From a virus (lineage: Duplodnaviria > Heunggongvirae > Uroviricota > Caudoviricetes), in IMG/VR virus record IMGVR_UViG_2713896901_000009, positions 1-24,140 of that record: 24,140 nucleotides of DNA; one strand, written 5' to 3'. This document shows, piece by piece, positions 2,869 through 20,826 of the stretch. Both the position numbers and the translations under genes were made by a program. Position 1 is the first letter of the stretch; each line of letters begins with the position of its first letter. The notes under the pieces are model-generated. The model searched no databases, was not told the origin of the DNA, and saw only the letters and a list, made by a program, of their open reading frames with translations.

Positions 2869-3792
2869 TCAGTAGTTATGTACTGAAGGAGGCAATTCTT
2901 TATTCTTAAGTCTCATCCATGCGGAAAGATTCGTTGGTCCGTCTGGCTCATTGATATCAACATCTCGTGTGTGGTTGATTAAAACGTCTCTCGCCATTCC
3001 GATAACATACGAGAACTCATGACCGTAGTCGTAGCATCTGCCGGAATAGTTCGATTGAATTTGTTTTAATGCCGGATACAGTTCGCGGAATAATGCCTGT
3101 GAACGGTTGGCATAATCCCATAACCATACAAGGCTGTTTGCTTCTTTTGCAGAAAGCTCGTTGGTTTTCTTCTCTTGTTTTCCAATGAACTCACCTTCAA
3201 GTGGAACTCGAGCTGCAAGTGATAGTGCTTCGGTAAACTGCTCCTCACTGATTTCTTTGTACGAACATCCAAAATGGGATTTTAGTGACGACCACATGGT
3301 GATCATCGCCTTAGCCTGTTTTTCTTTTGGCAGAGACTGACCGCGACTCATGACGAGTTGTTTAATGGCTTCCTGCTGTTCAGTGGTGATTTTCCCCGGC
3401 AATGCCTTTTTAGCTTTGCGCGGGTTAATCACATGGCCTTTAGTCCAGTACTCGTAGAGCACATCGTCACACTCTTCCTGATACTGGATTACCTTGTCGC
3501 GGATTTCAGGGCGGACTTTGTTAGGACTGATGGTTTGCAGCCAGCCATTCAGTTTACGCAAAGCAAGGCAAATCATGGTCTGCACACCACCAACTGAAGG
3601 TATTGCGATTTCCACAATACCTTTAGCAAATCTTTGTTTTAACTTTGTAAACTGTGAAGCCCAATCCATACCCATGCCTTCAACGATAGGTTTCATTGGG
3701 GTATACGGTTCGCCGTTGTGATTGACGACATAAAGCTCTGCGCCGTGGAATGGCACGTTGATAGTAGATACTGCTGTTGCTATACTTTTCAT
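2869..3792 (-). CDS. ant: Antirepressor (Ant-like)
   Basis: 307 aa, ATG at 3792, directly downstream of the arc-like gene and upstream of tailspike, the P22 immI position of ant. The N-terminal region ([11 protein letters not shown]...[13 protein letters not shown]) resembles antirepressor N-terminal domains. Domain assignment is from memory. Confidence 0.65.
3758..3786 (+). promoter_or_regulatory. Candidate sigma70 promoter antisense to the ant 5' end (Psar-like)
   Basis: TTGATA (3758-3763), 17-bp spacer, TATACT (3781-3786). The predicted start near 3793 is directly opposite the ant start codon. Confidence 0.4.
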
Positions 3793-4109: not shown

Positions 4110-4361
4110 ATGTCTGATCGTAAGTACAAAAACCCTCAAGTGAATCTGAGGCTTCCTGTAGAGATAAAGGAGCGTCTTATTGAACTAGCTGAGGCTAATT
4201 CTCGTTCATTAAATGCTGAGATGGTCGCAGCACTTGAAGCATGGACCGAAAAAAACAAACACATTCAAGCACTAGATCTTGCAACTATAGCATCGCGACT
4301 GATAGAGCTTGAGCATGATGTTGAGAAGTTAAAATGTATGCATGGCAATGGTGAAAAATGA
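4110..4361 (+). CDS. mnt: Mnt-like ribbon-helix-helix repressor
   Basis: 83 aa. The N-terminus PQVNLRLPVEIKERLIELAEANSRSLNAEMVAAL matches the Arc/Mnt RHH fold pattern. Divergent from arc as in P22 immI. Confidence 0.8.
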   Translation: MSDRKYKNPQVNLRLPVEIKERLIELAEANSRSLNAEMVAALEAWTEKNKHIQALDLATIASRLIELEHDVEKLKCMHGNGEK

Positions 4362-4675
4362 AACGTATCGCTATCCTATTGCTCCTGTGTCTCTCGAGCA
4401 TAGCTAACGCAGAAACAAAATCAGACGATAGCAGTTTTGATGAAATACAAGGCCTCATGATAGCTTCGAAAATGGCTGGTATGTGTGGTGCAATCAAACA
4501 AATGGCAATATTCCAAGAATCTACAAACATGCCGGGTGGGAATGAATTCTTACAGAGATTCCTTACTACAGAGCAAGCAAGGCTTGGGATGACTCCGCAG
4601 CAATTTCTTGAAGCATGTCAGAAATCAATCTCTATTTATACCACCTATTACAATATGAGCTCTGAGAAAAAATAG
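4358..4675 (+). CDS. Small secreted protein of unknown function, translationally coupled to mnt
   Basis: 105 aa. ATG overlaps the mnt stop (ATGA). Sec-type signal peptide MKRIAILLLLCLSSIANA with AxA site; mature part has two Cys. No family recognised. Confidence 0.6.
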   Translation: MKRIAILLLLCLSSIANAETKSDDSSFDEIQGLMIASKMAGMCGAIKQMAIFQESTNMPGGNEFLQRFLTTEQARLGMTPQQFLEACQKSISIYTTYYNMSSEKK

Positions 4676-4684
4676 ACTAGGATC

Positions 4685-4870
4685 TCAACAGCTTCCGCGT
4701 CCCTGAGTAATTCTGTTGCGGATTTGCTTCTTGCGGTGGTTTAGGCTGGAGAGCTTGGCTTCTGCTTCTGATATTTGCGCATCCAAATCTTTTAGTTCAA
4801 GATCTGAAAGGCGCTGGTCAAGCAGGGTTTGGTTTAACTCAATGTTGTTCAGACGTTCTTCTATAGTCAT
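4685..4870 (-). CDS. Hypothetical small coiled-coil protein
   Basis: 61 aa, ATG at 4870 with AAGGT 7 nt upstream; heptad-like Leu/Glu-rich sequence. Lies on the late-transcript strand. Weak. Confidence 0.3.
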   Translation of the reverse strand: MTIEERLNNIELNQTLLDQRLSDLELKDLDAQISEAEAKLSSLNHRKKQIRNRITQGRGSC

Positions 4871-4895
4871 ATTGTTACCTTAGTGGGAGATTAGT

Positions 4896-5120
4896 ATGAT
4901 TTCTGCTATTTTATCGGTGCTGCTAGCGTCATTATTCATCGGAGTGGTGTTGATCTCCCCGATGCCAATAATATCAATATTATTCATCTTGATGATCGGC
5001 TGGTTGTGGCTTAAAAAGGCAAGAAACGATTATTTTTTATCCATAAGAGATAAGCAATTGGAGCTTTTCCGCTTGGGGTACACTGGCGACTTGCCATTCT
5101 TAACATACCAAAAAAAGTAA
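4896..5120 (+). CDS. Small two-transmembrane-helix membrane protein
   Basis: 74 aa. GGGAGA 5 nt upstream of ATG. Two hydrophobic segments (ISAILSVLLASLFIGVVLI and IISILFILMIGWLWL), basic C-terminal tail. Followed by an intrinsic terminator. Confidence 0.55.
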   Translation: MISAILSVLLASLFIGVVLISPMPIISILFILMIGWLWLKKARNDYFLSIRDKQLELFRLGYTGDLPFLTYQKK

Positions 5121-5126
5121 TAATCA

Positions 5127-5149
5127 AGCCGGGTCACTCCGGCTTTTTG
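5127..5149 (+). terminator. Rho-independent terminator after the 74-aa membrane-protein gene
   Basis: AGCCGG-GTCACT-CCGGCT followed by TTTT, 7 nt after the stop. It overlaps the last codons of the convergent minus-strand gene. Confidence 0.6.
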
Positions 5150-5499
5150 ATATGTCGCTCGCAGAACTCAACAAGCCTGCTCATTAAGTAGCAGTAAGTC
5201 TCATTGGCTCTTCCTGGTTCAACATCAACGCCGACCCTTGAGCAGATATCGAATGCCATGTGAGCGCACTCATGGGCAATAGTAGATAGTTTGCCATTGA
5301 ACACGCCTATCACATGCAAAACACCATTCTCGCTACTCATTGTATGAGACGCTCCGTTGGCGTCCGAGTCATGCACGTCCACGCCAAGTTTTTGATGCAG
5401 GCGTTGCCATTCTGGAAAGTCTCTGCAAAACACAATTGTACCGCTCTCAAAGAGCGGAACAAGCATTTTTGGTACGTTTCCAATGTTAACTTTTTTCAT
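5134..5499 (-). CDS. HExxH-motif protein, possible small zinc metallopeptidase (ImmA/IrrE- or SprT-like)
   Basis: 121 aa. Motif KLSTIAHECAHMAFD (H-E-x-x-H), with a further Glu/Tyr cluster (ETYCY) downstream. Start is ATG at 5499 with AGGA 4 nt upstream. Family assignment is tentative. Confidence 0.45.
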   Translation of the reverse strand: MKKVNIGNVPKMLVPLFESGTIVFCRDFPEWQRLHQKLGVDVHDSDANGASHTMSSENGVLHVIGVFNGKLSTIAHECAHMAFDICSRVGVDVEPGRANETYCYLMSRLVEFCERHIKKPE

Positions 5500-5529
5500 G
5501 GTATCCTGCTCAAAACTAAGGAGGTTGGT

Positions 5530-5736
5530 GTGAAGCGATTGATTGTAGGGCTTGCTGTAGTTGCTTTTTTTATCTTCTCGGCTTCGACTGGTTACGGAGT
5601 TAGATTCTCATCATCAACAATCAACGATAAGATTGAATGCAGATACATAAGCGTTTCCGGCAAATTCTCCAGAAATTACTGGTATTCAGATAATGGAATC
5701 ATGGGTATTAGCAATTGCCCTTTATTTGACAGATAG
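5530..5736 (+). CDS. Small protein with N-terminal signal/anchor sequence
   Basis: GTG at 5530 preceded by AAGGAGG at 5-nt spacing. 68 aa with hydrophobic N-terminus KRLIVGLAVVAFFIFSASTG. The ORF-track upstream extension is antisense to the HExxH gene and looks non-coding. Confidence 0.45.
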   Translation: MKRLIVGLAVVAFFIFSASTGYGVRFSSSTINDKIECRYISVSGKFSRNYWYSDNGIMGISNCPLFDR

Positions 5737-5793: not shown

Positions 5794-7950
5794 TTATTGC
5801 ATTTTGGGTTGGTCGTCACTGGCTGTAGTCTCTTGCTGAGATAACCATGTGATAAACCCCGTGCGAGCAATAGTTTTTGCTTCATCTGTTGATAGGGTTT
5901 TCTCCCATCTCTTAAATGCATTAGATCGCATCAGCTTCCTTTCTATTACGCGTCTCACTTCTGCTCTGTCTACTGGTGCGTTTTGCAGGCGAAATAGCAT
6001 TGATTTAAACTCAGGAGAGGACAGTAGAGCATCAGCAGCCTTTATCCTGCTTGTTTTCCCTGACATCAATGCAGCCGATATTACCCCTGAAGCACCTGCT
6101 CCCAAAAGGCCAAATGAGCTTGTAATTCCTTCCGCCGCAATAGCTTTTGAGGCTATTCCATAAATTTTTGCGAGACTACCCTTTTCTTTCAGAAAGTTAT
6201 TAACTTGCTGATCCACAAGGCTACTAGCATACTGCTTACCAGTATTGAGTCTATTCATAGCCTTAGCTGCTTGATAAATCGTATCAAGGCGCTTTGATGC
6301 ATCTGTGCCAATAGCATCACGGAGAGCCTTCATATTGGCCCCATTGCGTGACATTCCGTTATACCATTTTACAAATCCATCAACTCCTAATTGCTGACCA
6401 GGTGATTTGGCATAGCTGGTAAATGCTTTATTCATTGAGGTGAGCGCAACTTCCTGCCGCATATCCTTTGGAATCGACTTCATTAATTGCCTAAAGTCGC
6501 CACCGTTTCCTTTTGCCATATTAACAACAGCACTTTCAACTTTTGGAATTGCTGATTGCTGAAGTTTTCTACCCAAGACGGTTACAGCATCATCTTCAAT
6601 TGATTTTCGTTTTTTTACCAACTCCTTACCAAGCGTCCATAATTCCCCTGCGCCATATTTTTCTGCGACAGCCTGTTGGTCATCTGTTATGGCTGCATAT
6701 AACTTTTTAAGAACACCTGTTTCTTCATCCTTGAATGGACCAGAGCCTTTGCCAATAGCTTGTCCAACCTGCTTTCTAGCGAGATCTAAACGCCCATACG
6801 TTGGCAAGGTGTTTGGATCAAGTCGGTTCAATGTCCGCTTCATTATTGGAGATAATTCATCAATTCCACCTATGTCATCAGCAAAATCCTCTAAAAAATT
6901 CAATGTATTAGTTGCCTCAATCCGGTCTCTTACAGGAACCTTTTCGGCAATTTTGTTGTAGATGTTATCTGACTGATTTTGTAATGATGAAATGGTTTTA
7001 TCAAAATTATCTGCAAGCCTGTCAGAAACCAGTTGCTTATCAAGGTTTCCCCCAAATGAAGTTATCATTTCATCAGCTTTTCTTCCTAATTCAGTAATAA
7101 AACGCTTATGCGCCTCACTAATCTCTGTTCCAGGGAGACTTGCCACTGCATTATCAAGAGCTCTGACAGCAGGATTATTAGAGATCATGCCTGGAGTGGC
7201 ATAATTTTCCAGTTCTAGCTCACGAATAGCATTTATCGCGTTAAAATCAGGATTAACTTCATCGGCGAAATCTTGAATAGCTCGTTGCCCACCAATAAAT
7301 TTATTATCCATTGCACCAGCAGCTTTCTTTAACGTTGCTTTAGATGATTTACTGCCCATCCCTACGGATGAGCGATAAATATCTCCGGCACTATTTTTAA
7401 TTTTTCCTGCAATCTTCCCAAGCGCTGGACCAACAATCTCGGCTACAGGGCCAGCCACAGCGCCAATAGCAGCGCCGGAAGCAACATCGCTATTTGTTCC
7501 ATTGGCTACAATAGCCCCTTCTCCAGCACCAAGCCCTGCGGCGGCAGCCAGCCTTGCCGCCCCTTTCGGAACCTGAGAAATAATCCCACCACCACTAACA
7601 AATGGCGCTGCTTGTCCAACGAACTCACCAACATCTTGTGCGGTTGATGGTTTTGCCGCTAACTTCTGCTGTAGAGACTGAATTGCGGCTTGCTCTTCTG
7701 GTGTCATATCCTGAAACAGGCCAACACCTTTACCAACATCCATCAATCCACTGAGAACGCCATACATAAAACGGTCGAAACCGTTAGCATTATTAACAAC
7801 ATTTTCCTGTCTGGAATTTTCCCCTGGTGAAACCAAAGGTGATTGCTGCTGTTCTGGTTGGGCATCAAGCACAAAACCATCAGGAAGCTGTGAGTTATCA
7901 GGCTGTTCATCCAGAACAAACCCCTCTGGTAAACCTACATTGGTTGCCAT
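5794..7950 (-). CDS. Ejection (internal virion) protein, P22 gp16 position
   Basis: 718 aa, Ala/Gly-rich. Last of the three ejection-protein genes in P22 order; overlaps the gp20 stop. Confidence 0.8.
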
Positions 7951-9284
7951 TGTCCGTTCCTGTAAATAATTTTCTGACCAGTTTTAGGATTTTTCGCGGT
8001 CATACCTTCTCGAAATGTTTGACCGCCAGATGTTGCTTGTTGTGTCTGTTGTTGCGCAGGCTGCTGAATATCTTCATAAAGCTTGGCTTTTCTGGATTGC
8101 AATTGCTTAGTTAGTCCGCTGGGGAGAGAATCTCCATAAGTTGAAAGATAATCATCCATTTGCTGATTAAACTTTTCACCTTCAGTATTTGCCATCAGTT
8201 TTGCGGTGTTGATTAAGTCTTGGACTTGCTCATTATTCAACATCTTGCCGTTAGATAATTGGCTAACATAGTTACCAAGTGTGCCGAATATTCCATCAGT
8301 GCGTTTTACCTGTACTTGCTCACCTTCGCGCACCACAGATTGCGGATCCAGTGATTTCATATAGTTGAAAATCATTCCCAACTGCGCGGCTGGAGTGTTA
8401 CGCTTCCCGAGGGCTTGTAGGTTGTCAGCAGCACTGCGCATTGCAGAATAATTCTTTGAGAACCCATTAATATCACTATTCAGATCTCGAACAAGTTTTG
8501 GGTCAATCTTTCCGCTTTCCTGTTGTTTCATCCCTAATTCCTGCAACTTCAGGGCTACGTTATCATTATGCATTTGTGCCCGCTGAGCCCTGTCTAGTTG
8601 AGCGTTCTGGATATTTGCCCATCCTCTCGCATTCTCCATATCAGCCTGACGGATGCTTTCATCCAATCGCCCTTTCTCAAGTTGGCGACCAACCATCTTA
8701 TCCTGATAATCCAGCATTTTATCCGGGCCAACAGCCCCTAGCGTCATAGTAGTCAGCATGTGTGATAGCTGCTCTGGATTCTGAATACCTGTCTGAATCA
8801 TCCAGTCAGCATTAGCGCCAACGCGATTTAACCTGTCCTTGTTGTCAGTAATGAATTTACTGTAGGCTTCCGGTCCCTGAGAAAGAGCGACGTTAGCCCT
8901 CATGGCTAAATCGCCCATATCGTTGCGTTGCTGATCATTAAGACCGGAAAACGCCTGTTGTGCCTGTGCAACAAACGCTGGATTTTCCTGGGCAAACTTA
9001 AATAATCCCGATGGATCACCAGAAGCCCATGCATCAGCGTGAACCTTATTGAACGCACTAATCGCTTTCTGTTGCTGTTCCTGATTGTAAATATCAGCAA
9101 CTCCAGCCAGACCACGTAACGCGGTCAGACCAACGTTATTTGCACCTGAGCGAGCCAGTTCATTGTTTTCGCGGATCAGACCAAGCGTTGCGTTAATGTC
9201 GCTTGCCTTTGGCGCATTCTCATTTTGCGCACCAATTCCAGCCAGAAAACCACCAGAATTAATACCCTGTTGCCACGTAGCCAT
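7935..9284 (-). CDS. Ejection protein, P22 gp20-like
   Basis: 449 aa, Gln/Asn/Ala-rich. Synteny gp7-gp20-gp16. Confidence 0.8.
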
Positions 9285-9294
9285 TGATTACCCC

Positions 9295-9984
9295 TTAAAA
9301 CAACGAGCCAAGCAGACCAAGACCAGCACCGATACCAGCACCCCACGGAGTTGATAGCTCGAGAGCACTGGCTATGCCACCACCCAAAAGCGCACCGGAT
9401 GCAGCACCACTAACACCCTGCTGCAATGCTGACGGTCGGTTGGCGTTTGCCGCCGCCAGCGCCGCGCTTTGCTGTGAAATCTGACTCATGTTGTTGGCAT
9501 ATGTTTGCCCGGCGTTTGCCTGCCCCTGAAGAGCGCCAAGACCAATATTTGCCAGATTCTGGTAGTTGTTCATCTGACCAGATAGCCATTGCTGACCAAG
9601 CGTTGGTGCGATTGTTGCTAACTGATTACTGGTTGCGGTGGAACCCAATCCACCTGTTGCTTCCGCTGCCGCCAGACTCTGATAACGAGCCTGACCAGCA
9701 AGATCTTTGTACTGCTGAGAGTTGTAATACTGGTTAAGTGCCTGACCTTGCCCTTCCAGAGACGATAAGTTCTCGAGGCTGCCGACATACTTCTCAGCCA
9801 GAGGAGTAAACGGCTTCAGGTTGTTCATGATGGTGTTGAACTGCTGATTTTGCAGGTCTGCGGCATACTTCTGAGCTTCTGCTGCATACTTTGCGCTTTT
9901 ATCGGCTCCACCTTTCCCGCCTTTTTCAGGGCAATAAGGTTCCTCGCTGCGCAGTTTTCTGCCCAGCTTAAATGCATATAACAT
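9295..9984 (-). CDS. Ejection protein, P22 gp7-like
   Basis: 229 aa; Gly/Ala-rich hydrophobic C-terminus (GGIASALELSTPWGAGIGAGLGLLGSLF). Same size as P22 gp7. Confidence 0.8.
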   Translation of the reverse strand: MLYAFKLGRKLRSEEPYCPEKGGKGGADKSAKYAAEAQKYAADLQNQQFNTIMNNLKPFTPLAEKYVGSLENLSSLEGQGQALNQYYNSQQYKDLAGQARYQSLAAAEATGGLGSTATSNQLATIAPTLGQQWLSGQMNNYQNLANIGLGALQGQANAGQTYANNMSQISQQSAALAAANANRPSALQQGVSGAASGALLGGGIASALELSTPWGAGIGAGLGLLGSLF

Positions 9985-9986
9985 GG

Positions 9987-10445
9987 CTATCTCCCGTGAT
10001 TCAGGAAGTCGATTAGTTCTTCGCGTGTAGCGCTGTAAAACGTCACGTCATCCACGCCTTTGAAGTATTTCTTGATAGTTCCCACACGCTTAAGGCCAAT
10101 CATTGCGCAGTACATCTGCCCGTGGCGGAATTTGCGTGCAGCGAACGATGTGACGCACTGAACGGTGGTGTTAGTCAGAATGTATCGCCAGAACGCCAGC
10201 CCGATTTCCTTGCTGAATCCACGAACCTCTGGCAGGTACATGGCGTGGCAATCGAATGTCAGCGGCTGAATCTCCTGATAGTAAACAATGCCGCCGAACT
10301 GCCCGTGCACGTTCACCTCAAAGTAACGGCAATCAGGTTTGTAGTCGTATCCATCACCGTTGTTGCTCCCGGCAATAATGTCAGGGTGATTTCCGACTGC
10401 TTCGATCAGGTCGATGTTTCGCGTTGGTTTGAACTGAATCATCAC
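9987..10445 (-). CDS. Virion assembly/ejection-associated protein, P22 gene 14 position
   Basis: 152 aa between tail needle and gp7. Start overlaps the needle stop (ATGA). Assigned by synteny only. Confidence 0.6.
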
Positions 10446-11290
10446 TGCTCCGCGATTATCTTGATGGTTGTGGCAGTAAACGCCGCACCATTTGACTGGA
10501 TGGTTAACGTACTGCCATTTGTGGCAAGAAAGCCGTCTTTATCCACGCTGAAAAACGTAGCTAACAGGATGTTATCGGTCGTTGTCGCCGCATTACGACT
10601 GCTGACCAGTGTGTCAGGAACAGAGCCGGAAAAGGTTAGCTGCATTGACCTGTTTGCGGTTCCGCTGGGCCACGTCCCAACAATCGACAGCTTGAAGAAC
10701 ATGGTTTTGTTCTCGTTGAACACAACCATCTTGTTGTTAACGGTGTCGAAGAATGGTGCCAACGTGCCGGATGACGGCGTTAGCGTTTTCAGCAGGCTAA
10801 CAAGATTGGTCGGCGCTGTCGGGATGGTTACAGATACGCCAGAGTAAACAACCTCTGACTTCTTGCGAGTAGTGGCATACTCCAGAGCATCGATGCGCGT
10901 TTCATGGTCTGAAACCTGCGACTCCAGCAACTGAACTCTTGTGTCAAGCGACGAAATATCGCTTTCATTCTGAGCTATTCGTGTTTCATGGTCCTGAAGA
11001 GTTGATTCTGCCTGGCTGATTCGCTCCTCATGATTAACAAGCGTTGCTTCCGCAGCAGAAATTCGCTGCTCATGGTCAGCGAGAATCACATCCTGCTCAT
11101 CGTTCCTGACTTGTGCGTCATAAGCGCCCTGTCCGGCCTCGTTGGCCTTGTTCGCCACGTTACCAACATCAGTACCCTGTGCGATAACGTACAGCAGATA
11201 TGACTGCGAGAAGATATTGCGTGGAAGGACTGATGTGTCGAGCCGTGTAGCCTGAATGATTACCGGCACATTGAGATTCGAATCCGCCAT
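10442..11290 (-). CDS. Tail needle (gp26-like) with C-terminal knob domain
   Basis: 282 aa. N-terminus [43 protein letters not shown] matches the P22 gp26 plug domain. Central heptad repeats ([36 protein letters not shown]). About 120 extra C-terminal residues as in knob-bearing needles (Sf6 type). Confidence 0.85.
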
Positions 11291-12708
11291 TACTCAATCC
11301 TTATCTGAGCGCCAGACAGAGTGACAGGTGACTTCGTGATAACGCGTAATTTGAAGCCGACATTTTTCCTGATGCGCCCGACTCGCTTCCACAAAACGCG
11401 TTTGTCGTAAACGAACGGTTCATTCTGCTCAATCATCTGCTCACGCCCGTAATTGATGCCGTCAGTGGTTGCAGAGAGAAAAAGGCGGTCAGCATACTGC
11501 GCAACGCCAGTTGAAGATTCAACTTCAAGGTCGAAAACCCTGGCGTTATCCGCTTTGAACAACGGAGTAAACAACAGGTGTTCCTGTTGCTTGTCGTACT
11601 GGCTGCTGATATCGAACTGCAATTTGCCGATAACCGATTCCAGCTTATCTCCGCACGTTATCTGATTGCCTTCGTAAATGAAGTCGATAGCGCGGTACAC
11701 ATCGTCATACAGGCCTGTTTTCAGCACACACCATTGCGGACCATTGGCGCTTGAAGATGCGTCGTACACGAGAACATGGCGCGGAAGGTGGATAATCAGC
11801 AACTCATGCGCATCAAAGCGCAACGATTCCATCACGCCATCAGCCAGTTCATCAGCAGTGTAGGAGCGGAGAATTTTCTCAATGCTCGCGCTGGCGATTG
11901 GTGATACCTGACCGGAGCCGATGATGTATACAGACGGAGCACCTGTTGCCGGATTGCTGATGAACGCATAGGAATCAGCAAACGGCGTTTTGCAGTAAGT
12001 CCCGGCAATACCTTTCTGCACCATCAGTGATGGCTGTGCGACATACAAAGCGGCACCAACGGTGGTTGCACCTGTCAGGGAGAAATATTCAATCGTCGAT
12101 GAACCAAAGCAGACGATGAAGTCTCGCCATGTTCCGATGCCGATGATGCCGTCAGGCTGCGATTCTGCGCGATATTGTGCGCTGTATCGGTCAGGGTGCG
12201 ATTCGTCTTCAAGGTCAGTGATAAACCATGAATCCGTGCCGTCTTTTGACCACGCATAACGCCCACGTAAGCGTGTAATGTCGCGGACTGAACCTAACTC
12301 ATACTGAGTGAATCCGCTGTCTGTAGGCCAGTTTGAGACGGTTTTAACCGTGCCATCATAACGATACTCGACCAGTTGACCATTAACGCCTACCGCCTGT
12401 GATGTCCGACCATGCGCCATTGATACGCGACCACTTCCAGCGACGTCACCGACTTCGCTCTCGCCTTTGTAGAGCTTCCCACCACACACGCGATAAACAG
12501 CACTCTGCGCCATGTTGTACTCGACACCGCGCGATACACCATTCACATCAGAACGTTTGGCAATGCCAGGGAATGAACGAAGATATCCGCTGCTGTTAAG
12601 GATTTCTTTGGGTGTAGCCAACATATTCACTGGCAGATAGTCGATATAGTCGGCGTTTCGAAAGTCTTTGCCGACACCTTTCATAAGCGGAAGTTGCTGA
12701 ATCGGCAT
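11290..12708 (-). CDS. Tail hub / head completion protein, P22 gp10-like
   Basis: 472 aa, same length and position as P22 gp10. Stop overlaps the needle start by 1 nt. Confidence 0.8.
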
Positions 12709-13209
12709 TTATTCGCTCCCGTTATCGCAAGGTTCCTTCCGGTGGAAGTAATTCCAACCGTTCCACTTCGCCAACTGATTACCGCTACCAACAGGCATAC
12801 GGTTTGGATAACCGGACTTACATTTGGCGGCTTTTGCTCTGTCCATTGCAGACAGTTTGACGAGTCGCTCTTTCCCGTATCTGGCAGTAGTTATAAGTTT
12901 TGCAGGTGCTTCCAGCGCATAATCCGGAGCAATGCGGCAGGCAAGGTTGAAAATGACAGCATTGATAGCGTTATTTGATAAACCGTGCTCATCGCCCGGA
13001 TCTGGAGCGACATCTGCTTCAGCGAAAATGTAGCCAACGTTGATACCAGGTGACGCATCACCGCCAAGCCATTCAGCCATCATCATTTCAAGGTCGTTGA
13101 CGCCGTCTTCCATAGACTGCGGTTCGACATCGGTTAACGTGGCATTTGATGCAACACCGAGCTTACGTAATGCTGCAAGGACTAAATCACCCTTCGTTGT
13201 CAGGTTCAT
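12709..13209 (-). CDS. Tail accessory protein, P22 gp4-like
   Basis: Preferred start is ATG at 13209 (AAGG 9 nt upstream), giving 166 aa beginning [21 protein letters not shown]. The ORF-track start at 13278 has an SD directly abutting the ATG. Confidence 0.75.
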
Positions 13210-13417
13210 CTGCTGCCGCCTTAGGTTTTCGACCAGGCTTTTTACGCTGTTTTTCTTCTGGCTCTGGCTCTGCAACATCCTTCAAAAGCTCATCAGGATG
13301 TGAAAACCAACCAGCATCCAGATATTCCTGAAGCTCTTCGGCTTTCACGATTTCAAAGTCGTATCCAACGCCTTTCCACTTCTTCATGTCGCCATGACGA
13401 AAGATCATGTGTGTCAT
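13187..13417 (-). CDS. Small acidic/basic-tailed protein between coat and gp4
   Basis: Preferred start is ATG at 13417 with GGAG 6 nt upstream (76 aa). C-terminus [26 protein letters not shown] is highly charged. Overlaps the gp4 start. Confidence 0.5.
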
Positions 13418-13461
13418 GCTTGTCTCCAGATAAAAAAGGGAGCCGAAGCTCCCTCTGGTTA

Positions 13462-14757
13462 TCACGCAGTCTGGTTAGGCAGACCAACACCAATTGCCTC
13501 TGGTCGTACAGCACATGCTGAATACCACACAGCAATACGGCACTTACCAGACAGAGTGTTGATATCACCCTGCGTTGCGAAGATGCCGTTAACACCAATG
13601 CCTGGAATGCTGAAGGAAGACGTTTTCATGCCAGCAAACAGTTCATGGGTTACCGGGATCGGCTGAGACAGCAGACGGATTGAGTCATCAGCCCAGAACA
13701 CGTTAGCGGTGGTTGTTGCCACGTTCAGAACGTTTACCGGAGTGGAATCAGCAAGAGAGGTGTTTACGTTAGCGTAAGCCTTCTCTTCTTTTGTCAGTGA
13801 AGAGTCATCAAGCGCAATCGGCTTCGGCGTGATTTCGATGTGAGTACCATCGATCACACGGGTGATTGAGAAAGTCGCGTCATCAGTCAGCACGTTCTTC
13901 GCCATCTGAGACAGGAATTTCACGCCAGTGAAGCTGATTTTGTCGCCGCGCTTAAATCCGGTGGTGGAGGATACGGTCACCGTTGCAACACGGTTGTCGA
14001 CGTTCTCTTTGTTACCATCGGTATCAAGAGTGTATGCCTGCGGCTTAAACTTCTGCGCACCAGAAACAGTTACACCAGTAGCGGTTGACTTGGTAACTGC
14101 CGGAAGTTTCGGTGAGCGAAGAATTTCATCAAAGCCAGCAATCTGACGCTGAATAGTACCGTTGCGATACGCTTCTTCAGGAACGCGCCCGAAGATGTCA
14201 CCATCTACCAGGTTGCGGCCTGCTTTGCGGTAATCGTCAGGGTTCAGGAAGTAACTGATGCCCATATCGCGGTTTAGCTCACGGGAGAACATCAGGCGCT
14301 CTGCATCAGACACAAAATCCCAGCCAGACAGGCCAGTAGATGGACCAATTGCTCGGGTATCGTGAACAACAAGTGAGCCCATTTCAGTTGCCTGTTTGGC
14401 AATTGCTGACTCAATGTTATTCGCCAGTTTTTTAGCGGATGCCTGGATGCGGCGACGGTAAGAACGCTCATCACGCAGGTCATCTGCACGAAGCTCGAAG
14501 AAATCGTTATCCGGATCGCCCATGTTGCATTTCACGGACAGTTCCAGAATACCGGTAGCGTTGCCAGTTAAATCCCAGCCAGTCTGAGTTGGCGCTTCCT
14601 GCTCAACAGGCATCCACACGGTGTTGCTTGAACGTTGCATGGATTCTGCCGGAGGGGTGTATTTTGTCACTTTAGACGCCATTGGCGTCAGGTTCTGGAC
14701 GGTTTCGATGATTTCATCCAGAGCATACGTGACCAGTTGACCTTCATTTAATGCCAT
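13462..14757 (-). CDS. Major coat protein, P22 gp5-like
   Basis: 431 aa; N-terminus [19 protein letters not shown] and overall sequence closely match P22 coat as recalled. Stop/start overlap with scaffold gene. Confidence 0.9.
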
Positions 14758-15668
14758 TATCGAATTCCTTTATTCAGTTGCGCCTTGAGCTTGCGGTATG
14801 TCTCTACATCCCCTTTGTTTGCTGCCGCTTCCATCTGCTTTTCAATCGCAGAGATATTTGCAGCAACAGCGTGTCCCTGAATGGGTTCATCAGGTAACGG
14901 GGCTTCTGAAACAGGCTTGGCTCGAGGCTTGAGAGTTAAACGTTCTGACAGTCGAGTGAGTTCAATCAGCGCGGATTGCCCGTCCATCGCCAGCAACTGG
15001 CGTGTTTTCTCAGGATTAGCACCAAGGTGATACATGAGAGCAGCGGATTTCTCCGGGAAGAGGCGCATGATGTCGGCACCGACTGCTGGCGACACCAGTT
15101 GCATGAATGCATCCTCTTTCTCCTGATAGTCAGGGATATTGAGCTTTTCCGCTGCGTCGTAGTGCTTACGGGCTGCCTCGACGTATTGCGCTGATTGCTG
15201 GGTGAACTCCTGAGTTTTGCGACCCTGCTCGGCGACAGCCTGGCTTCGTGCGTCCATGGCCTTGATCTGCCATTCACTGTTTGCCTGCTGGAAGGCAGCC
15301 AGTGCGCGGCTCTGGTCATAGTCGTACTTAGCCAGTGCATCTTCGGAAAGATAATCGTTAGGGTCTGGTTGTTTTGGTAACTCAGGGTTCACCCGCAGGT
15401 GCTCCGGCAACTCTCCACGCTTAACCGCTTCCATCTGCTGCTCAAGCTCACGCTGGCGTTTGCGTTCGATGCGGCGACGGGCAAATTCAGCATTAGTTGC
15501 CGGGTCTTGTTTTGGTTTCTCATCGTCTTTCAGGACAATCTCGAAGCCTTCTTCCTGACCTGTGTTGTCGTTGGCATTATCGACAACTAAGCCATCAGCA
15601 GATGCCGCTGCATGATTGCCGGGCAGGGTTAATTCTTCAGAAGCCTGAATGTCGGTGGTTTGGTCCAT
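14757..15668 (-). CDS. Scaffolding protein, P22 gp8-like
   Basis: 303 aa, acidic and helical, with helix-turn-helix-like C-terminus. Same length as P22 gp8. Confidence 0.9.
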
Positions 15669-15681
15669 GATTAACTCTCTC

Positions 15682-17850
15682 TTATTGAGGTGTCTCGGCT
15701 ACTCCGCCGGAGGGGATTTGAACTTGACGCATAAGATTCGCGAAATCCATGCGTTGTGAATGAGTCTGGTCTGCATCTTTAAGAAGCAGCTCAGCGTTAG
15801 CACGAGCATCTTTGCTGCGCTGTTGCTGGAATTGACCTACGAGCTTGAGGTACTCACGCAGTTCTGCCTGCTTGTCGAGGTCCATATTGTTGAAGATTTC
15901 TGCAATCTTCGCGGCGTTGAGTTGGTTTTGGGCTTCAACCTTGGCGGCTTCAACCTGAATCTGCGCCTGTTGGTTCTCTGCCTTGAGCAATTCAGCCTGA
16001 CCTTGCAGAAGGATACCCTGCGCCTGAATTTGCTCTGCTGATGGCTGCTGCGGCTGTTGTTGTGCCTGCTGCACCATCTCCATCTCTTCAGGTGTTTCTG
16101 GTTTCTTCAGCCCCATCATCACCAGTTGCTTGTTCGCGTACTCTCGCATCATCTCGACGCCTTTACCGTCAAGCAGCGTGAAGTATTGCAGCATCAGCAT
16201 CTGGAACTCTGGAGTACCTTGCGGAACCTTGGTGAGCAACTCCTGAATCTCTGCGCGGTTCTGTTCCTTCATACTCTGGAAGGATGGTCCGACGTCTGTA
16301 TAGCACTCATAGCGACCGCGAATGTCGTTGAGTGTGACCACATTGCCGGACTGGTAATCGACAACTTGCGCATAGAGTTGAACGTCTTTCTCGCTTCCAT
16401 CTTCAAGTGTCAGCGTTACATGACGAGGAACGTCATAAATATCGTTGACCATTGAGGCATAAATCTCGCCATCACGTCGCATTGCGGTAGCCAGGTTATC
16501 CTGAAACACGTATGTCTCAAGGTCTGCCCGCATGTTCAGTTGATTGACGGTATCGAAAGCGACCTGAGAGTTTGCTGCCTGCGCATCCACACCAAGACTA
16601 GCCACCTCTTTCACTGCGTTGGTGGCAGCCTCAAGCATGTAAGCGTTGGCTTGCGGCACTTCAGGGTTTTCCATGTAGGAGATTGGACCAATCGGCAGGT
16701 CGTTACCGTTTTCATCGGTCTTGTTCTGCAGATAGTACGGATAGTCATCATTTCCACCGTACATGTATTCGTAGCCTTCGATTTGCTCAGGGAAGAAGGT
16801 CGGTTTCTTCTTCGGTGAACGAGCAACAATATCGGCGTTGAATGACATGATCATGTTACGAAGGCGCTGACCGTCTTTCGTCAGCCTTACCACTCCTTCG
16901 TAGCACTCCTTGTCACCAGCGAATGACCATTCGCCATACACTGGAACGATTGGAATATGCTCTCCGGCTATCTTCTCGCGGTCTTTCAGTATCTGCGTGC
17001 AGGTGATGATCGACTTATACACACGCCGACGCTTCACCTTGCGCTCTGCTACCTTAATGAATCCACGATTAGCCAGGTCGTCGATAACGTCTTTAATATC
17101 CTGCTGGTAATAGCTGACCGGCTCACCTGTCAGCGGGTCGCGGTAGATGAAAACTTTCTCTTTCTTCTCTTCTACCTCGTAATACTCAGCGACGTAGACG
17201 ACATCATTCGATACCCACGGAAACAGCCATGTATCGTTTGGATTCTGGAAAGATGGCAGCGTGTCAGGATCAATACCGTAATCCTCTGCGAACTCTTTCC
17301 AGCCATTGCGTGACAAGGCGTTAATCACCGTGCAGTGCTTAGCGTCGCTCTTATCCATCTGCTTGCTGTTGGCGTCCCATATGACGTGTGAGCAGGCCTC
17401 ATGGATTGGCAGGCGTCTGATTACCTGATTGTTGCTTGTTGGGTCGTTGTCTTCGTACTGTGTGACCAGACGCCATGCACCAACGCCGGACTCTATCTGC
17501 TCACGAACGCCAACGTTAACGGCAATCTTTGCCGTGTTATGGCGCATATCAGTACGATACATCCCCATCAACACATCGGCTGCATCAGGATTAGCGCCGT
17601 CTTTTGGTCGGAAGAGAACGTCGATAGGGTTCCGGCGCATCTCTGCGACCAGTTTCCTGACCACCGGGCGAACAACATCGAATTGTCCGCGATATTGCAG
17701 GGTAGTGTAGTTTGATAGCCAGTCATCCCATTGGCTTATGCGACTGAAGTATAAATCGTTAGAAGCTTCTGTTCTCGCCTCGTCGGAAGACATCCAATCA
17801 ACATCGAATGCTTGCAGTATCTTATTTAATCGCTCTGCGTTGTCAGTCAT
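15682..17850 (-). CDS. Portal protein, P22 gp1-like
   Basis: 722 aa. Segments such as [29 protein letters not shown] and the Gln-rich C-terminal barrel region match P22 portal as recalled. Confidence 0.9.
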
Positions 17851-17900
17851 AACTTTACCGTGATAAAATCAATGGGACAACTTCAACAGGAGATTCTATT

Positions 17901-18401
17901 GTGAGCCATCCATCTATAGAAGATATAAGGAAAAATTTCACATACGATGCTGAAACCGGAATTTTGTACGCGGCTAATCGCACAAGGAGGACAGACCTTA
18001 ACGGCAAGCCCGTTGGGTGCCAGCATGGAAACGGATACCTTGATGTAAGGCTTGGTAAAAAACTGTACTACGTGCACAGAATTTGTTTTGCGCACTACTA
18101 TGGTTACTGGCCCGAAGCAGTAGATCACATAAACGGAAACCGTGCTGATAACCGCATCTGTAATCTTAGAGATGCCAATAAGCAGTTGAACGGACTAAAC
18201 CGTGGCATGGATTGCGACAATTCAACTGGATACAAAGGAGTTTCCTATCGCAAGGACACAAATAACTACATGTGGCAATTTGTGGTAGAAGGCAAGAAAT
18301 ACACAAAAAGCGGATTCGCTACAGCATTAGATGCATACAAGCATAAGGTAGCATTTATTAACGCTCTGAATTCCGCTGCCTCTGAATTTCTCAAGCCGTA
18401 A
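17901..18401 (+). CDS. HNH homing-type endonuclease with AP2-like DNA-binding region
   Basis: 166 aa. GTG start with AGGAGA 7 nt upstream. Motif YYVHRICFAHYYGYWPEAVDHINGNRADNRICNLRDA is an HNH signature. On the opposite strand to all flanking structural genes, filling the terminase-portal junction with 9 nt and 50 nt gaps. Confidence 0.8.
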   Translation: MSHPSIEDIRKNFTYDAETGILYAANRTRRTDLNGKPVGCQHGNGYLDVRLGKKLYYVHRICFAHYYGYWPEAVDHINGNRADNRICNLRDANKQLNGLNRGMDCDNSTGYKGVSYRKDTNNYMWQFVVEGKKYTKSGFATALDAYKHKVAFINALNSAASEFLKP

Positions 18402-18410
18402 CAACAGTAT

Positions 18411-19913
18411 CTATCTTGTTGACCGTGCGATGGGCCTGATTGGGGCTGGTATCTTTTTCTCTTTTGGTTTTTTGATGTCGCGCATCATTTTTGCGAAGCG
18501 GCGCATCATGTATGCATAGCGAACGGCGGATAGCACGTCATCGTTAAGCTTGACGATTTTCCCGTTTTCATCACGGTGATAGAGGCGGAACTCCTCAAAG
18601 AATGGCTCACAGGTGTTGAATACTTTGAAGCGACCATCGAGCATCATGTCGCGCAATTCAGTGATGCCAGGCTCCACAGCGTTACCGCCATCAGGCCATG
18701 TCGCATGCTCCTGCAACATCATAAAACCAGCGTCGGCATACTGCCCTTTGAGCTGCTCACCGCCGCCCTTCTCATGCTGGTTTCCGTCATGAGGCCATGC
18801 GGTTGGCACTTTATGCGCCCATGATTTAACGGCTCCCCAAGCCTGAACGGCTGTTTTTTCTTTCGCCTTCCACACGCGTGAAACGTAGATTGTGTCTGCA
18901 TCTTTATCCCACCAAAGCTGAACATGCGCCTGCGGGTGATCCCATCCGAAATCCATCCCGCCAATTACGTAGAAGTGATCAGGACACTCGAACGGCTGAC
19001 ACTTAATCGTCTCTTCCGGTATCTGGAAGATTCGCCCGCTACCCATCGTAGGAATACCGCGAGCACGCGCCTCTCTCTCATGCTCAGGATAGGATGCGAT
19101 GATTTGCTCTTTCTGCTCGTCGGTGTAGTGCTCAGCGTCATAGATGGTCATGTTGACCACTTTCTGAGACTTGCTGGGATCCTTCAGGAACTTGGTAACA
19201 ACGTCAGACATCCCCATCAGCGGGGTAAACGTCAGAATTGAGAATTGCCCGTATTTGTTGGTACGGGTAAGCCCTTCGCCATAAATGCTGTATGGTGGTT
19301 CTTCGTCAAACCACACGCCGTGGATTGTGTCACCCTGCCAGCGAGCGCGGCCTTGCGAGTATGGTTTGAAGTAGCAGATTGAAATGCCATCTTCAACGCC
19401 ATCAGCCGTGTGATGCTTAACCAGAAGATGATCAACAAGGTTCGGAAAGAAAGGAGACTTCTTCCAGCTAATGATGTCTTCTTTCGGTATGGAACCGTAG
19501 CCAGGCTCATCATTCTCTTCGATACGACCGCACAGGATGCGTTGAGTCGTTTTGGTTACAGTCTCGTTTGTCTCTCCACCAATCCAGAAGACAACAGGCT
19601 CATAGAAACGCTTACCTTTCCACTCCCCACCATATTTACCATCAGCCGGATATCCTTTTGTTCCTGGATAACGTCCGGTAAGGTGAAACGCGACTTCAGC
19701 AGCACCAGTAAATGACTTACCAAGCTGGTTACCAGCCATAAAACAGCGCTCTGGATAGTCATGCCCGGCGTCGATGAACTCACGCTGTTTGCTGTATGGC
19801 GTAAATTCATATAGCAGGTGTGTGTTCCGGTAGTTCTCTTCTTCTTCGAGTTGCTCGAGCAATTCTATTTGCTCTTCGTCGCTCAAGTTATCAAGAATCG
19901 CGTCCAGTTCCAC
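18411..19913 (-). CDS. Terminase large subunit, P22 gp2-like
   Basis: 500 aa, with ATPase and nuclease regions. Overlaps the terS 3' end by 23 nt. Confidence 0.9.
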
Positions 19914-20379
19914 GGTTGAGTAGCTCCTTGATACGAGAGCGCCGCTTATCGCGATCTCCCTTATCAGGTGTCACGTCTTCAACTTGCGACTGCTCTTTGA
20001 GGCCCAAATCACGGGCGATGATGTTAGCGTTGAGAAGGTCAGCGGCTGCGCCAGAGAATTTCTGGTCGTAGATGACCTGCTCTGCTCGCGTAACGACTTC
20101 AGATAAATCTTCTCGCAGGCGATATGTGCGCCATGTTTCAAGCGTCACATCAATGAACAGAGTGAGGCCGGTAATGGTCATCGCTCGCATCTTGGCGATA
20201 GGCTCTTGTATCACTTCACCCTGATACGAGAACGCCTTCATCTCCCATAGCGGGTTAGCTTCTACCCACTCGAAGTATTCACAACAAGCAGCCCACAGCG
20301 CCTCAGGCGATTCGAATTTAGGATTTCGCCCATGACTACTGCGGGCCTCCCAAAATCGATTGCCCTTTGGTGCTGCCAT
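19891..20379 (-). CDS. Terminase small subunit, P22 gp3-like
   Basis: Preferred start is ATG at 20379 (GTGAG 6 nt upstream), giving 162 aa [20 protein letters not shown]... The ORF-track start at 20385 has no usable spacing. Confidence 0.85.
20091..20112 (-). other. pac site (headful packaging initiation) inside terS
   Basis: Minus strand reads GAAGATTTATCTGAAGTCGTTA, matching the 22-bp P22 pac sequence as I recall it. It encodes ...EDLSEVV... within the small terminase. Confidence 0.55.
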
Positions 20380-20402
20380 ATTCATCTCACTTAGTTGTTA
20401 TT

Positions 20403-20582
20403 TCAGGTTGAGGACTCTTTCGCGCCTTCAATCAGTGACTGCTTCAGCAATTCGAGTGTGCCAATCGCCTCGCATAAACTGATTTCACCATCGTAATCAT
20501 GGATGGCGCTTTCCAGCCGCTCGTATAGCCCTTGAGTAATTGGGAATTTCTTCTCCTTACCCAAATTGATTACGCGACTCAC
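20403..20582 (-). CDS. Small hypothetical protein (59 aa; not in the ORF track)
   Basis: GTG at 20582 with GGAG 6 nt upstream, TGA at 20403-20405. Translation VSRVINLGKEKKFPITQGLYERLESAIHDYDGEISLCEAIGTLELLKQSLIEGAKESST. Fills the gap between orf80 and terS. Confidence 0.4.
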   Translation of the reverse strand: MSRVINLGKEKKFPITQGLYERLESAIHDYDGEISLCEAIGTLELLKQSLIEGAKESST

Positions 20583-20583
20583 A

Positions 20584-20826
20584 TCATGCTCCGGTAGTGA
20601 ACAGGTCTAACGCTTCCTTCGATTTACGCACCGCTTCGATAGTGCGGGTCGTGATATCTGAATTAGCGCCGCCTGACTGGAAGTGAATTTTGAATAGCTC
20701 AAGCTTCAGCTCGTCAGTGCCAATGAACTGAAATGCTTCCTCTGCGGCTGCGTTCTGGTTCATGACCAGTTTGTAAATCTCTAGCTGGAATTTCTGTTCT
20801 TCAGTCATGGGAATAATCTCTGCCAT
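20584..20826 (-). CDS. Small hypothetical protein (80 aa)
   Basis: ATG at 20826 with GGAG 7 nt upstream; acidic, helical; no family recognised. Confidence 0.5.
   Translation of the reverse strand: MAEIIPMTEEQKFQLEIYKLVMNQNAAAEEAFQFIGTDELKLELFKIHFQSGGANSDITTRTIEAVRKSKEALDLFTTGA

Follow-up and report, generated by a model that had tools for sequence, protein, structure and literature searches.

A probable free-standing HNH homing endonuclease gene with co-converted flanks at the terminase-portal junction of a P22-like phage

The MobE and SegA-G endonucleases of phage T4 bring about intron-less homing between related phages, with co-conversion of flanking markers and with sequence polymorphism near the insertion site shielding the carrier genome. 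The Seg enzymes are of the GIY-YIG type and MobE is an HNH enzyme devoid of an AP2 domain; these endonucleases were shown experimentally to act in lytic co-infection. The HNH homing endonuclease I-HmuI of Bacillus phage SPO1 is a nicking enzyme that is encoded by an intron within the DNA polymerase gene and possesses a C-terminal helix-turn-helix domain. Barth et al. 2023 (PMC10448857) describe HNH-AP2 homing endonuclease genes that adjoin terminase genes or lie at boundaries of genetic exchange; the phage examples comprise the 'IPA-HNH' genes of ICP1 as well as HNH_3 plus AP2 genes of various phages, T5-like and Felix O1-like ones among them. In Salmonella phage SEN22, a gene homologous to the one studied here was described by the authors of that genome as an insertion of a homing endonuclease that separates the terminase gene from the portal gene (PMC5261728). 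Judged by its sequence, our gene is a 69%-identical allele of this element, which had already been noted once, in SEN22.

The window, i.e., the whole stretch of 24,140 nucleotides that was analyzed, derives from a phage or prophage of P22-like (Lederbergvirus-type) affiliation, of which it represents the late region, and its minus strand also encodes the scaffold, coat, gp4, gp10, needle, and injection proteins and the tailspike. An antirepressor gene (P22_AR_N plus P22_AR_C) is located at 2869-3792 on the minus strand, and plus-strand open reading frames are present in 4358-5736, between the tailspike and injection genes, including one for a YobH-like protein (5314-5736); this region is possibly immI-like or a moron region. 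The original prediction placed a plus-strand HNH endonuclease gene between the terminase and portal genes, and this was borne out by matches of its product to Pfam HNH_3 (E = 2e-13; 50.1 bits versus a cut-off of 24.8) and to PHROG 99, 'HNH endonuclease' (E = 4.7e-50), scores that lie far beyond those of a chance open reading frame and thus identify 17901-18401 as a real gene. The layout described in that prediction was equally accurate: the gaps to the portal ATG (50 nt, 17851-17900) and to the TerL stop (9 nt, 18402-18410) agree to the nucleotide, the gene has its own Shine-Dalgarno sequence (AGGAG, 17888-17892) and a GTG start, the register of which matches the ATG starts of homologs, and all its neighbors are on the minus strand, as is every sizeable open reading frame from 5794 to 20826. 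In agreement with that prediction, P22 lacks a gene at this position, its TerL gene ending and its portal gene starting at 1702 of NC_002371. The features of the locus are as follows.

15682 to 17850, minus strand: P22-type portal gene (PF16510, P22_portal, E = 1e-162)
17733 to 17850, minus strand: divergent portal patch, codons 1-39, about 57-59% identical to empty alleles, 43% GC, similar to the endonuclease gene
17851 to 17900, not stranded: intergenic part of the cassette, 50 nt, 34% GC, with the predicted -10 element and the 5'UTR of the endonuclease gene
17888 to 17892, plus strand: Shine-Dalgarno sequence AGGAG, 8 nt upstream of the GTG
17901 to 18401, plus strand: HNH_3 gene, 166 amino acids plus stop, GTG start, with an I-HmuI-like N terminus and an AP2-like C terminus
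Residues D75-H76, N88, N97, and N100 of its product: HNH motif of the I-HmuI-like N-terminal part
18402 to 18421, not stranded: right junction, made up of the 9-nt gap and the altered last TerL codons
18411 to 19913, minus strand: TerL (large terminase subunit) gene, Terminase_6N plus Terminase_6C
19891 to 20385, minus strand: TerS gene, GP3_package

A short inverted repeat, CAACAG-N7-CTTGTTG, lies at 18404-18423 and spans the gap, the stop codon, and the allele-specific TerL tail; no T-run accompanies it.

The best match of the protein in the PDB, both by sequence (E = 0.015) and by fold (probability 1.0), was I-HmuI (1U3E). The fold match is modest (TM 0.43, Foldseek E = 3e-3, identity about 26%) and covers the N-terminal beta-sheet and the HNH motif, with the D-H...N...N residues in alignment. 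Among 94 homologs, D75, H76, N78, D83, N84, N88, and N100 are invariant and N97 is nearly so. The AlphaFold (AF2) model of the 166-residue protein (pLDDT 93.2) has at its C terminus three strands (114-117, 122-129, and 132-139) and a helix (142-155), which together form an AP2-like unit at about residues 110-155. A Foldseek comparison of this unit with the AP2 domains 3igm, 7et5, and 7et4 gave probabilities of 0.8-0.9 with E values of at least 0.07. Pfam AP2 gave no match in the protein itself, and both AP2 and HNH_3 are precomputed in Pfam for many of its relatives at about 35-45% identity. No NCBIfam family was matched by the protein, and its sole match in PADLOC was the 'homing endonuclease' model of that library (E = 1e-4).

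A search of 5.8 billion proteins placed the endonuclease in a tight clade of nine clusters that share 66-99% amino acid identity and are less than 45% identical to anything outside. Where the source names a host, it is E. coli (prophages), Salmonella houtenae or diarizonae, or Obesumbacterium proteus, and RefSeq labels the E. coli copies as HNH endonucleases. Every member of the clade with a readable context has TerL on one side and a P22-type portal gene on the other and lies on the strand opposite to both, usually with 3 nt between the endonuclease gene and the TerL stop. The protein is under purifying selection: dN is 0.08-0.25 with saturated dS, and dN/dS is 0.06 in the one pair for which it was measurable, the saturation of synonymous sites making this ratio incomputable for most pairs. 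Together, the conserved catalytic residues, the purifying selection, and the predicted fold suggest that the protein is functional, as it appears to be.

One of the filled loci, L005 (a prophage of E. coli 19451123, NZ_CP191548), harbors two further HNH genes in its virion module, listed here with the adjoining gene fragment.

8842 to 9357 of L005, plus strand: HNH gene between the scaffold and coat genes, 41% identical to the window endonuclease over 85 residues of the HNH core
5615 to 6199 of L005, minus strand: second extra HNH gene, in the gp10 region
6248 to 6340 of L005: annotated gp10 fragment adjoining the second extra gene, which suggests a split or duplicated gene end

Both are absent from the window, the scaffold and coat genes of which overlap at 14757.

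To what extent the junction is occupied in related phages was apparent from a megablast comparison of 17400-18900 with phage records. It retrieved eight Escherichia/Enterobacteria records at 97-98% identity (APC_JM3.2, three IME10 records, HZ41, Louie, Dewey, and CurroJimenez), all of which are empty. The junction measures 934 bp in the empty alleles and 1501 bp in the filled one, the former being 567 bp shorter. In APC_JM3.2, IME10, Louie, and other empty phages, the TerL stop directly abuts the portal ATG (TAA-ATG), and in P22 the stop and start codons overlap. Two of the 215 complete E. coli genomes with a match carry the gene, and among the matches listed the other 38 (38/38) have the 934-bp empty allele; similarly, for the 128 phage records with a P22-type portal, filled alleles occur among the matches listed only in the two SEN22 records. 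The gene is hence polymorphic for presence and absence at a fixed site and, in keeping with the original prediction, is not found at this position in all relatives, the large majority of alleles being empty. Species-representative genomes searched with the protein and with the clade alignment yielded no relatives, plasmids searched for the cassette gave no match, and no degenerate copies of the endonuclease gene were seen. The rarity of the gene (2/215) is as compatible with an element that spreads poorly or passes on mainly by vertical descent as it is with an active one.

Alignment of the junction with those of related phages, which the original prediction had proposed, located the empty site and defined the insertion boundaries at the nucleotide level. 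Outside the cassette, filled alleles share 97-98% identity with empty ones. In comparison with APC_JM3.2, the portal gene of the window is 98-100% identical up to about 17733, where identity drops abruptly to about 57-59% over the first approximately 117-120 nt of the gene. The sequence again matches the empty alleles from about 18422 onward, three codons short of the TerL stop, and the TerL tail reads PIAR-STR-stop in the window versus PIAR-RT-stop in the empty alleles. In the window, a 689-bp block (17733-18421) stands where the empty allele has about 120 bp, and the GC content of the cassette and patch is 34-43.5%, versus 50-52% in the flanking genes. A comparable pattern was found between SEN22 and P22, the portal genes of which are 63% identical in nt 1-120, 98% in nt 121-240, and 94% in nt 301-1600, and the portal patch of SEN22 is 93% identical to that of L019, a filled allele on a different backbone. 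Two other filled loci, L006 and L007, encode an identical endonuclease protein (P0003) and are 100% identical over about 800 bp comprising portal nt 1-191, the intergenic region, the endonuclease gene, and the last approximately 19 TerL codons; outside this shared tract, their portal genes are about 91% and their TerL genes 55-69% identical, and their TerS genes belong to different Pfam families (Sf6_terminase and GP3_package). In L019 and L023, it is the portal backbones that are 96-100% identical, while the endonuclease alleles differ, each being accompanied by its own portal 5' patch. In four independent comparisons, the first 117-191 nt or so of the portal gene and the TerL tail track the endonuclease allele and not the backbone, i.e., the flanks are transferred together with the gene. 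These comparisons indicate that the moving unit is more than the open reading frame, namely, a block of about 690-800 bp that comprises the open reading frame, the 5' end of the portal gene, and the last TerL codons.

On the TerL side, we observed that the last approximately 15-19 codons (e.g., those ending in EKKAPAPIRTMVGTGARR and the stop) move with the endonuclease allele in the L006/L007 pair (about 4498-4557) and in the L019/L023 pair, and that the TerL contexts around the transferred tail differ, reading RYGDIG in one case and MMRDIKKPK in another. Since the tail follows the endonuclease allele across different TerL types, the C-terminal tail of TerL lies within the co-converted block. 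On the portal side, the left boundary coincides with the start of a conserved block coding for QWDDW, CA(A/G)TGGGATGA, in both the window/APC_JM3.2 and the SEN22/P22 comparison, and the identical tract of L006 and L007 runs past this boundary to portal nt 191 or so. As this block provides the first good homology in which recombination could be resolved, its position should be read with caution as a mark of the cleavage site. The portal patch itself (17733-17850) is likely to be the immunity or target region.

Two short sequence elements near the patch are mentioned here for completeness. The 8-nt inverted repeat CAATGGGA is present at 17870-17877 (plus strand), downstream of the -10 element, and at 17726-17733 (minus strand, portal codons 40-42), and it brackets the patch. 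Operator mimicry by this repeat was considered and rejected, as merely TGGGA is common to the alleles and the variable positions do not covary; the repeat is probably due to chance and coding constraint. Furthermore, the portal gene starts with ATGGCCGAC in five of five E. coli/Salmonella empty alleles (L001, L003, L010, L034, and L036) and in none of nine filled ones, the counterpart in the window being 17839-17850, though this correlation comes from a small set of related sequences. This start is possibly part of a candidate recognition site, and GCCGAC resembles sequences that are bound by some AP2 domains.

Taken together, the empty sites, the co-converted flanks, the identical cassettes in divergent backgrounds, the low GC content, the purifying selection, and the I-HmuI-like fold support the original prediction of a free-standing homing endonuclease. 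We consider it very probable that the gene is an intron-less, free-standing homing endonuclease gene of the HNH_3/I-HmuI-like type with an AP2-like domain, residing at the TerL-portal junction of a P22-like (Lederbergvirus) phage or prophage of the E. coli type. In the mechanism that we infer, an extended -10 sigma-70 promoter of its own would drive transcription of the gene, antisense to that of the late operon, and the enzyme would recognize the endonuclease-free allele either at the junction of the TerL stop and portal start or within the first approximately 120 nt of the portal gene. It would then nick or cut this allele at or near the recognized site, and the lesion, be it a nick or a double-strand break, would be repaired by recombination with the endonuclease-carrying genome as the template, during co-infection or upon superinfection of a lysogen. 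Such a repair would copy the gene together with its flanks, that is, portal codons 1 to about 39-64 and the last 3-19 TerL codons. The carrier genome would be protected, as the insertion splits the junction and the 5' end of its portal gene is about 40% different.

The promoter assumed in this mechanism is a predicted element composed of the following parts.

17840 to 17869, plus strand: predicted sigma-70 promoter, 10 of 12 consensus matches plus TG
17840 to 17845, plus strand: putative -35 element TTGTCA, antisense to portal codons 2-4
17861 to 17869, plus strand: putative extended -10 element TGaTAAAAT, after an 18-nt spacer
near 17875, plus strand: predicted transcription start site

The motif CCGTGATAAAAT followed by rTGGGA is nearly invariant in all filled alleles, and the upstream element as a whole (tTTGTnn-N18-TGaTAAAAT and then rTGGGA) is nearly invariant despite the saturation of synonymous sites, which argues for a functional promoter borne by the cassette. 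The endonuclease gene is intergenic and antisense to both neighbors, has its own Shine-Dalgarno sequence in addition to this predicted promoter-like element, and is associated with no intron or intein. As to the portal gene, its leader in the filled allele (window 17851-17865) reads CACGGTAAAGTT-ATG, with GGTA; it is poor in Shine-Dalgarno character and uncoupled from the TerL stop. In the empty alleles (L001, 3449-3465), a GGAG Shine-Dalgarno sequence is located inside the last TerL codons and the portal gene abuts the TerL stop. With the loss of both this sequence and the abutment, translation of the portal gene may be altered in carriers.

The antisense orientation and the extended -10 promoter conserved in every allele, along with the strong purifying selection on the protein and a PADLOC library in which the only match is a 'homing endonuclease' model, would also be compatible with a domesticated nuclease that acts as a competitive weapon. 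Such a nuclease would be expressed from the prophage while the late operon is silent and would cut the portal-terminase region of superinfecting, gene-free P22-like phages, with exclusion benefiting the lysogen and homing being secondary; its biochemistry would be that of homing, and it is the selective rationale that would differ. We regard this explanation as unlikely, because the promoter is a consensus match only, the gene is rare in E. coli prophages, so that any benefit is not strong, and movement of the gene itself, evident from the co-conversion tracts, is not needed for exclusion alone. It is conceivable, and we put it forward tentatively, that both roles are combined: expressed in an otherwise silent prophage, the nuclease might hit the TerL-portal junction or the 5' end of the portal gene of gene-free P22-like invaders, thereby serving as an exclusion weapon and at the same time converting the invader, with the patch of about 120 nt as the immunity determinant and the gene as a hotspot at which recombination reshuffles the terminase and portal modules. 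The idea of such a hotspot is suggested by the L006/L007 pair.

An inactive relic or moron, which a single event of illegitimate recombination would have brought in and which would since have been passed on only vertically or through ordinary mosaic recombination at the TerL/portal boundary, is in our view improbable. In its favor, the 6-bp direct repeat ACCGTG (17857-62 and 18422-27) flanks a 565-bp insert in the window allele. A target-site duplication was considered and rejected as a general feature: the right-hand copy derives from Ala-Arg codons of TerL, and the repeat is absent in SEN22-type alleles, indicating that it is probably a by-product of the coding sequence. The 5' end of the portal gene is, moreover, variable in general, since even two empty phages, APC_JM3.2 and P22, are 68% identical in its first 120 nt versus 79% and 73% further in, and this variability ends at the conserved QWDDW block, where recombination would be resolved anyway; part of the patch signal could thus be ordinary mosaicism. 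However, a relic would hardly retain invariant catalytic residues and low dN with saturated dS, nor would it account for the 100% identical tract of about 800 bp centered on the gene in two phages that are otherwise 55-91% identical, or for two different alleles on a 96-100% identical portal backbone.

A role as a packaging cofactor, in which the HNH protein would assist the terminase as HK97 gp74 does in cos phages and would belong functionally to the packaging module instead of being selfish, was rejected as highly improbable, given that P22-like phages use pac/headful packaging and not cos cleavage, that the gene is absent from nearly all close relatives that package normally (P22, IME10, and the BASEL phages Louie and Dewey), that it lies on the opposite strand with its own predicted promoter, that an identical gene is found beside two different terminase types, and that HNH_3 plus an AP2-like domain is a homing endonuclease architecture. 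In its favor, the gene directly adjoins TerL, and terminase-adjacent HNH genes can be read either way (Barth et al., PMC10448857).

Beyond the single earlier report of this element, the present analysis provides the definition of the mobile unit at the nucleotide level and four independent cases of co-conversion. A homing endonuclease of this kind leaves the current understanding of homing endonucleases unchanged, and its value is rather that of a clean natural example, one such gene in a well-understood family of temperate phages for which cultured gene-free partners exist (IME10, APC_JM3.2, the BASEL phages Louie and Dewey, and P22). Homing, co-conversion, and the competition between prophage and invader are, therefore, directly testable in P22-like phages. 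The endonuclease cassette would also explain locally a sharp mosaic boundary in the portal gene, and it illustrates the way in which a gene of this type can link the terminase and portal modules or separate them.

Comparison with the known systems sets the locus apart from HK97 gp74. Proteins of this type are likewise HNH-motif proteins encoded beside a terminase gene, but they are conserved across related cos phages and work with the terminase, whereas the window gene is sporadic, antisense, and carried by a pac-type phage. The T4 homing endonucleases were demonstrated by experiment in lytic co-infection, whereas the carrier described here is temperate. With I-HmuI, the window protein shares the nature of an HNH homing endonuclease, as far as can be predicted, and the N-terminal beta-sheet with the HNH motif; unlike I-HmuI, it is free-standing and intergenic, and its C-terminal domain is AP2-like. 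The closest counterpart is SEN22_3 (YP_009191456.1), a protein of 166 amino acids with 68.7% amino acid identity to ours, the gene of which occupies the same junction on the opposite strand and is, like that of the window, associated with the conserved promoter element and with a divergent portal 5' patch, in SEN22 relative to P22. It is nevertheless a different allele with saturated synonymous sites and is set in a different background, the genome of a phage of Salmonella diarizonae whose portal and TerL are P22-like; the gene and the TerL stop are 3 nt apart in SEN22 and 9 nt apart in the window, and the TerL tail is unchanged in SEN22 and altered in the window. Finally, the phage HNH-AP2 enzymes resemble the window protein in having an N-terminal HNH and a C-terminal AP2-type domain (AP2-like by the model in the window). 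These enzymes are mostly found in large lytic phages with many such genes, whereas the window gene is present as a single copy in a temperate P22-like genome, and its clade differs from other HNH-AP2 genes in being tight and dedicated to one junction.
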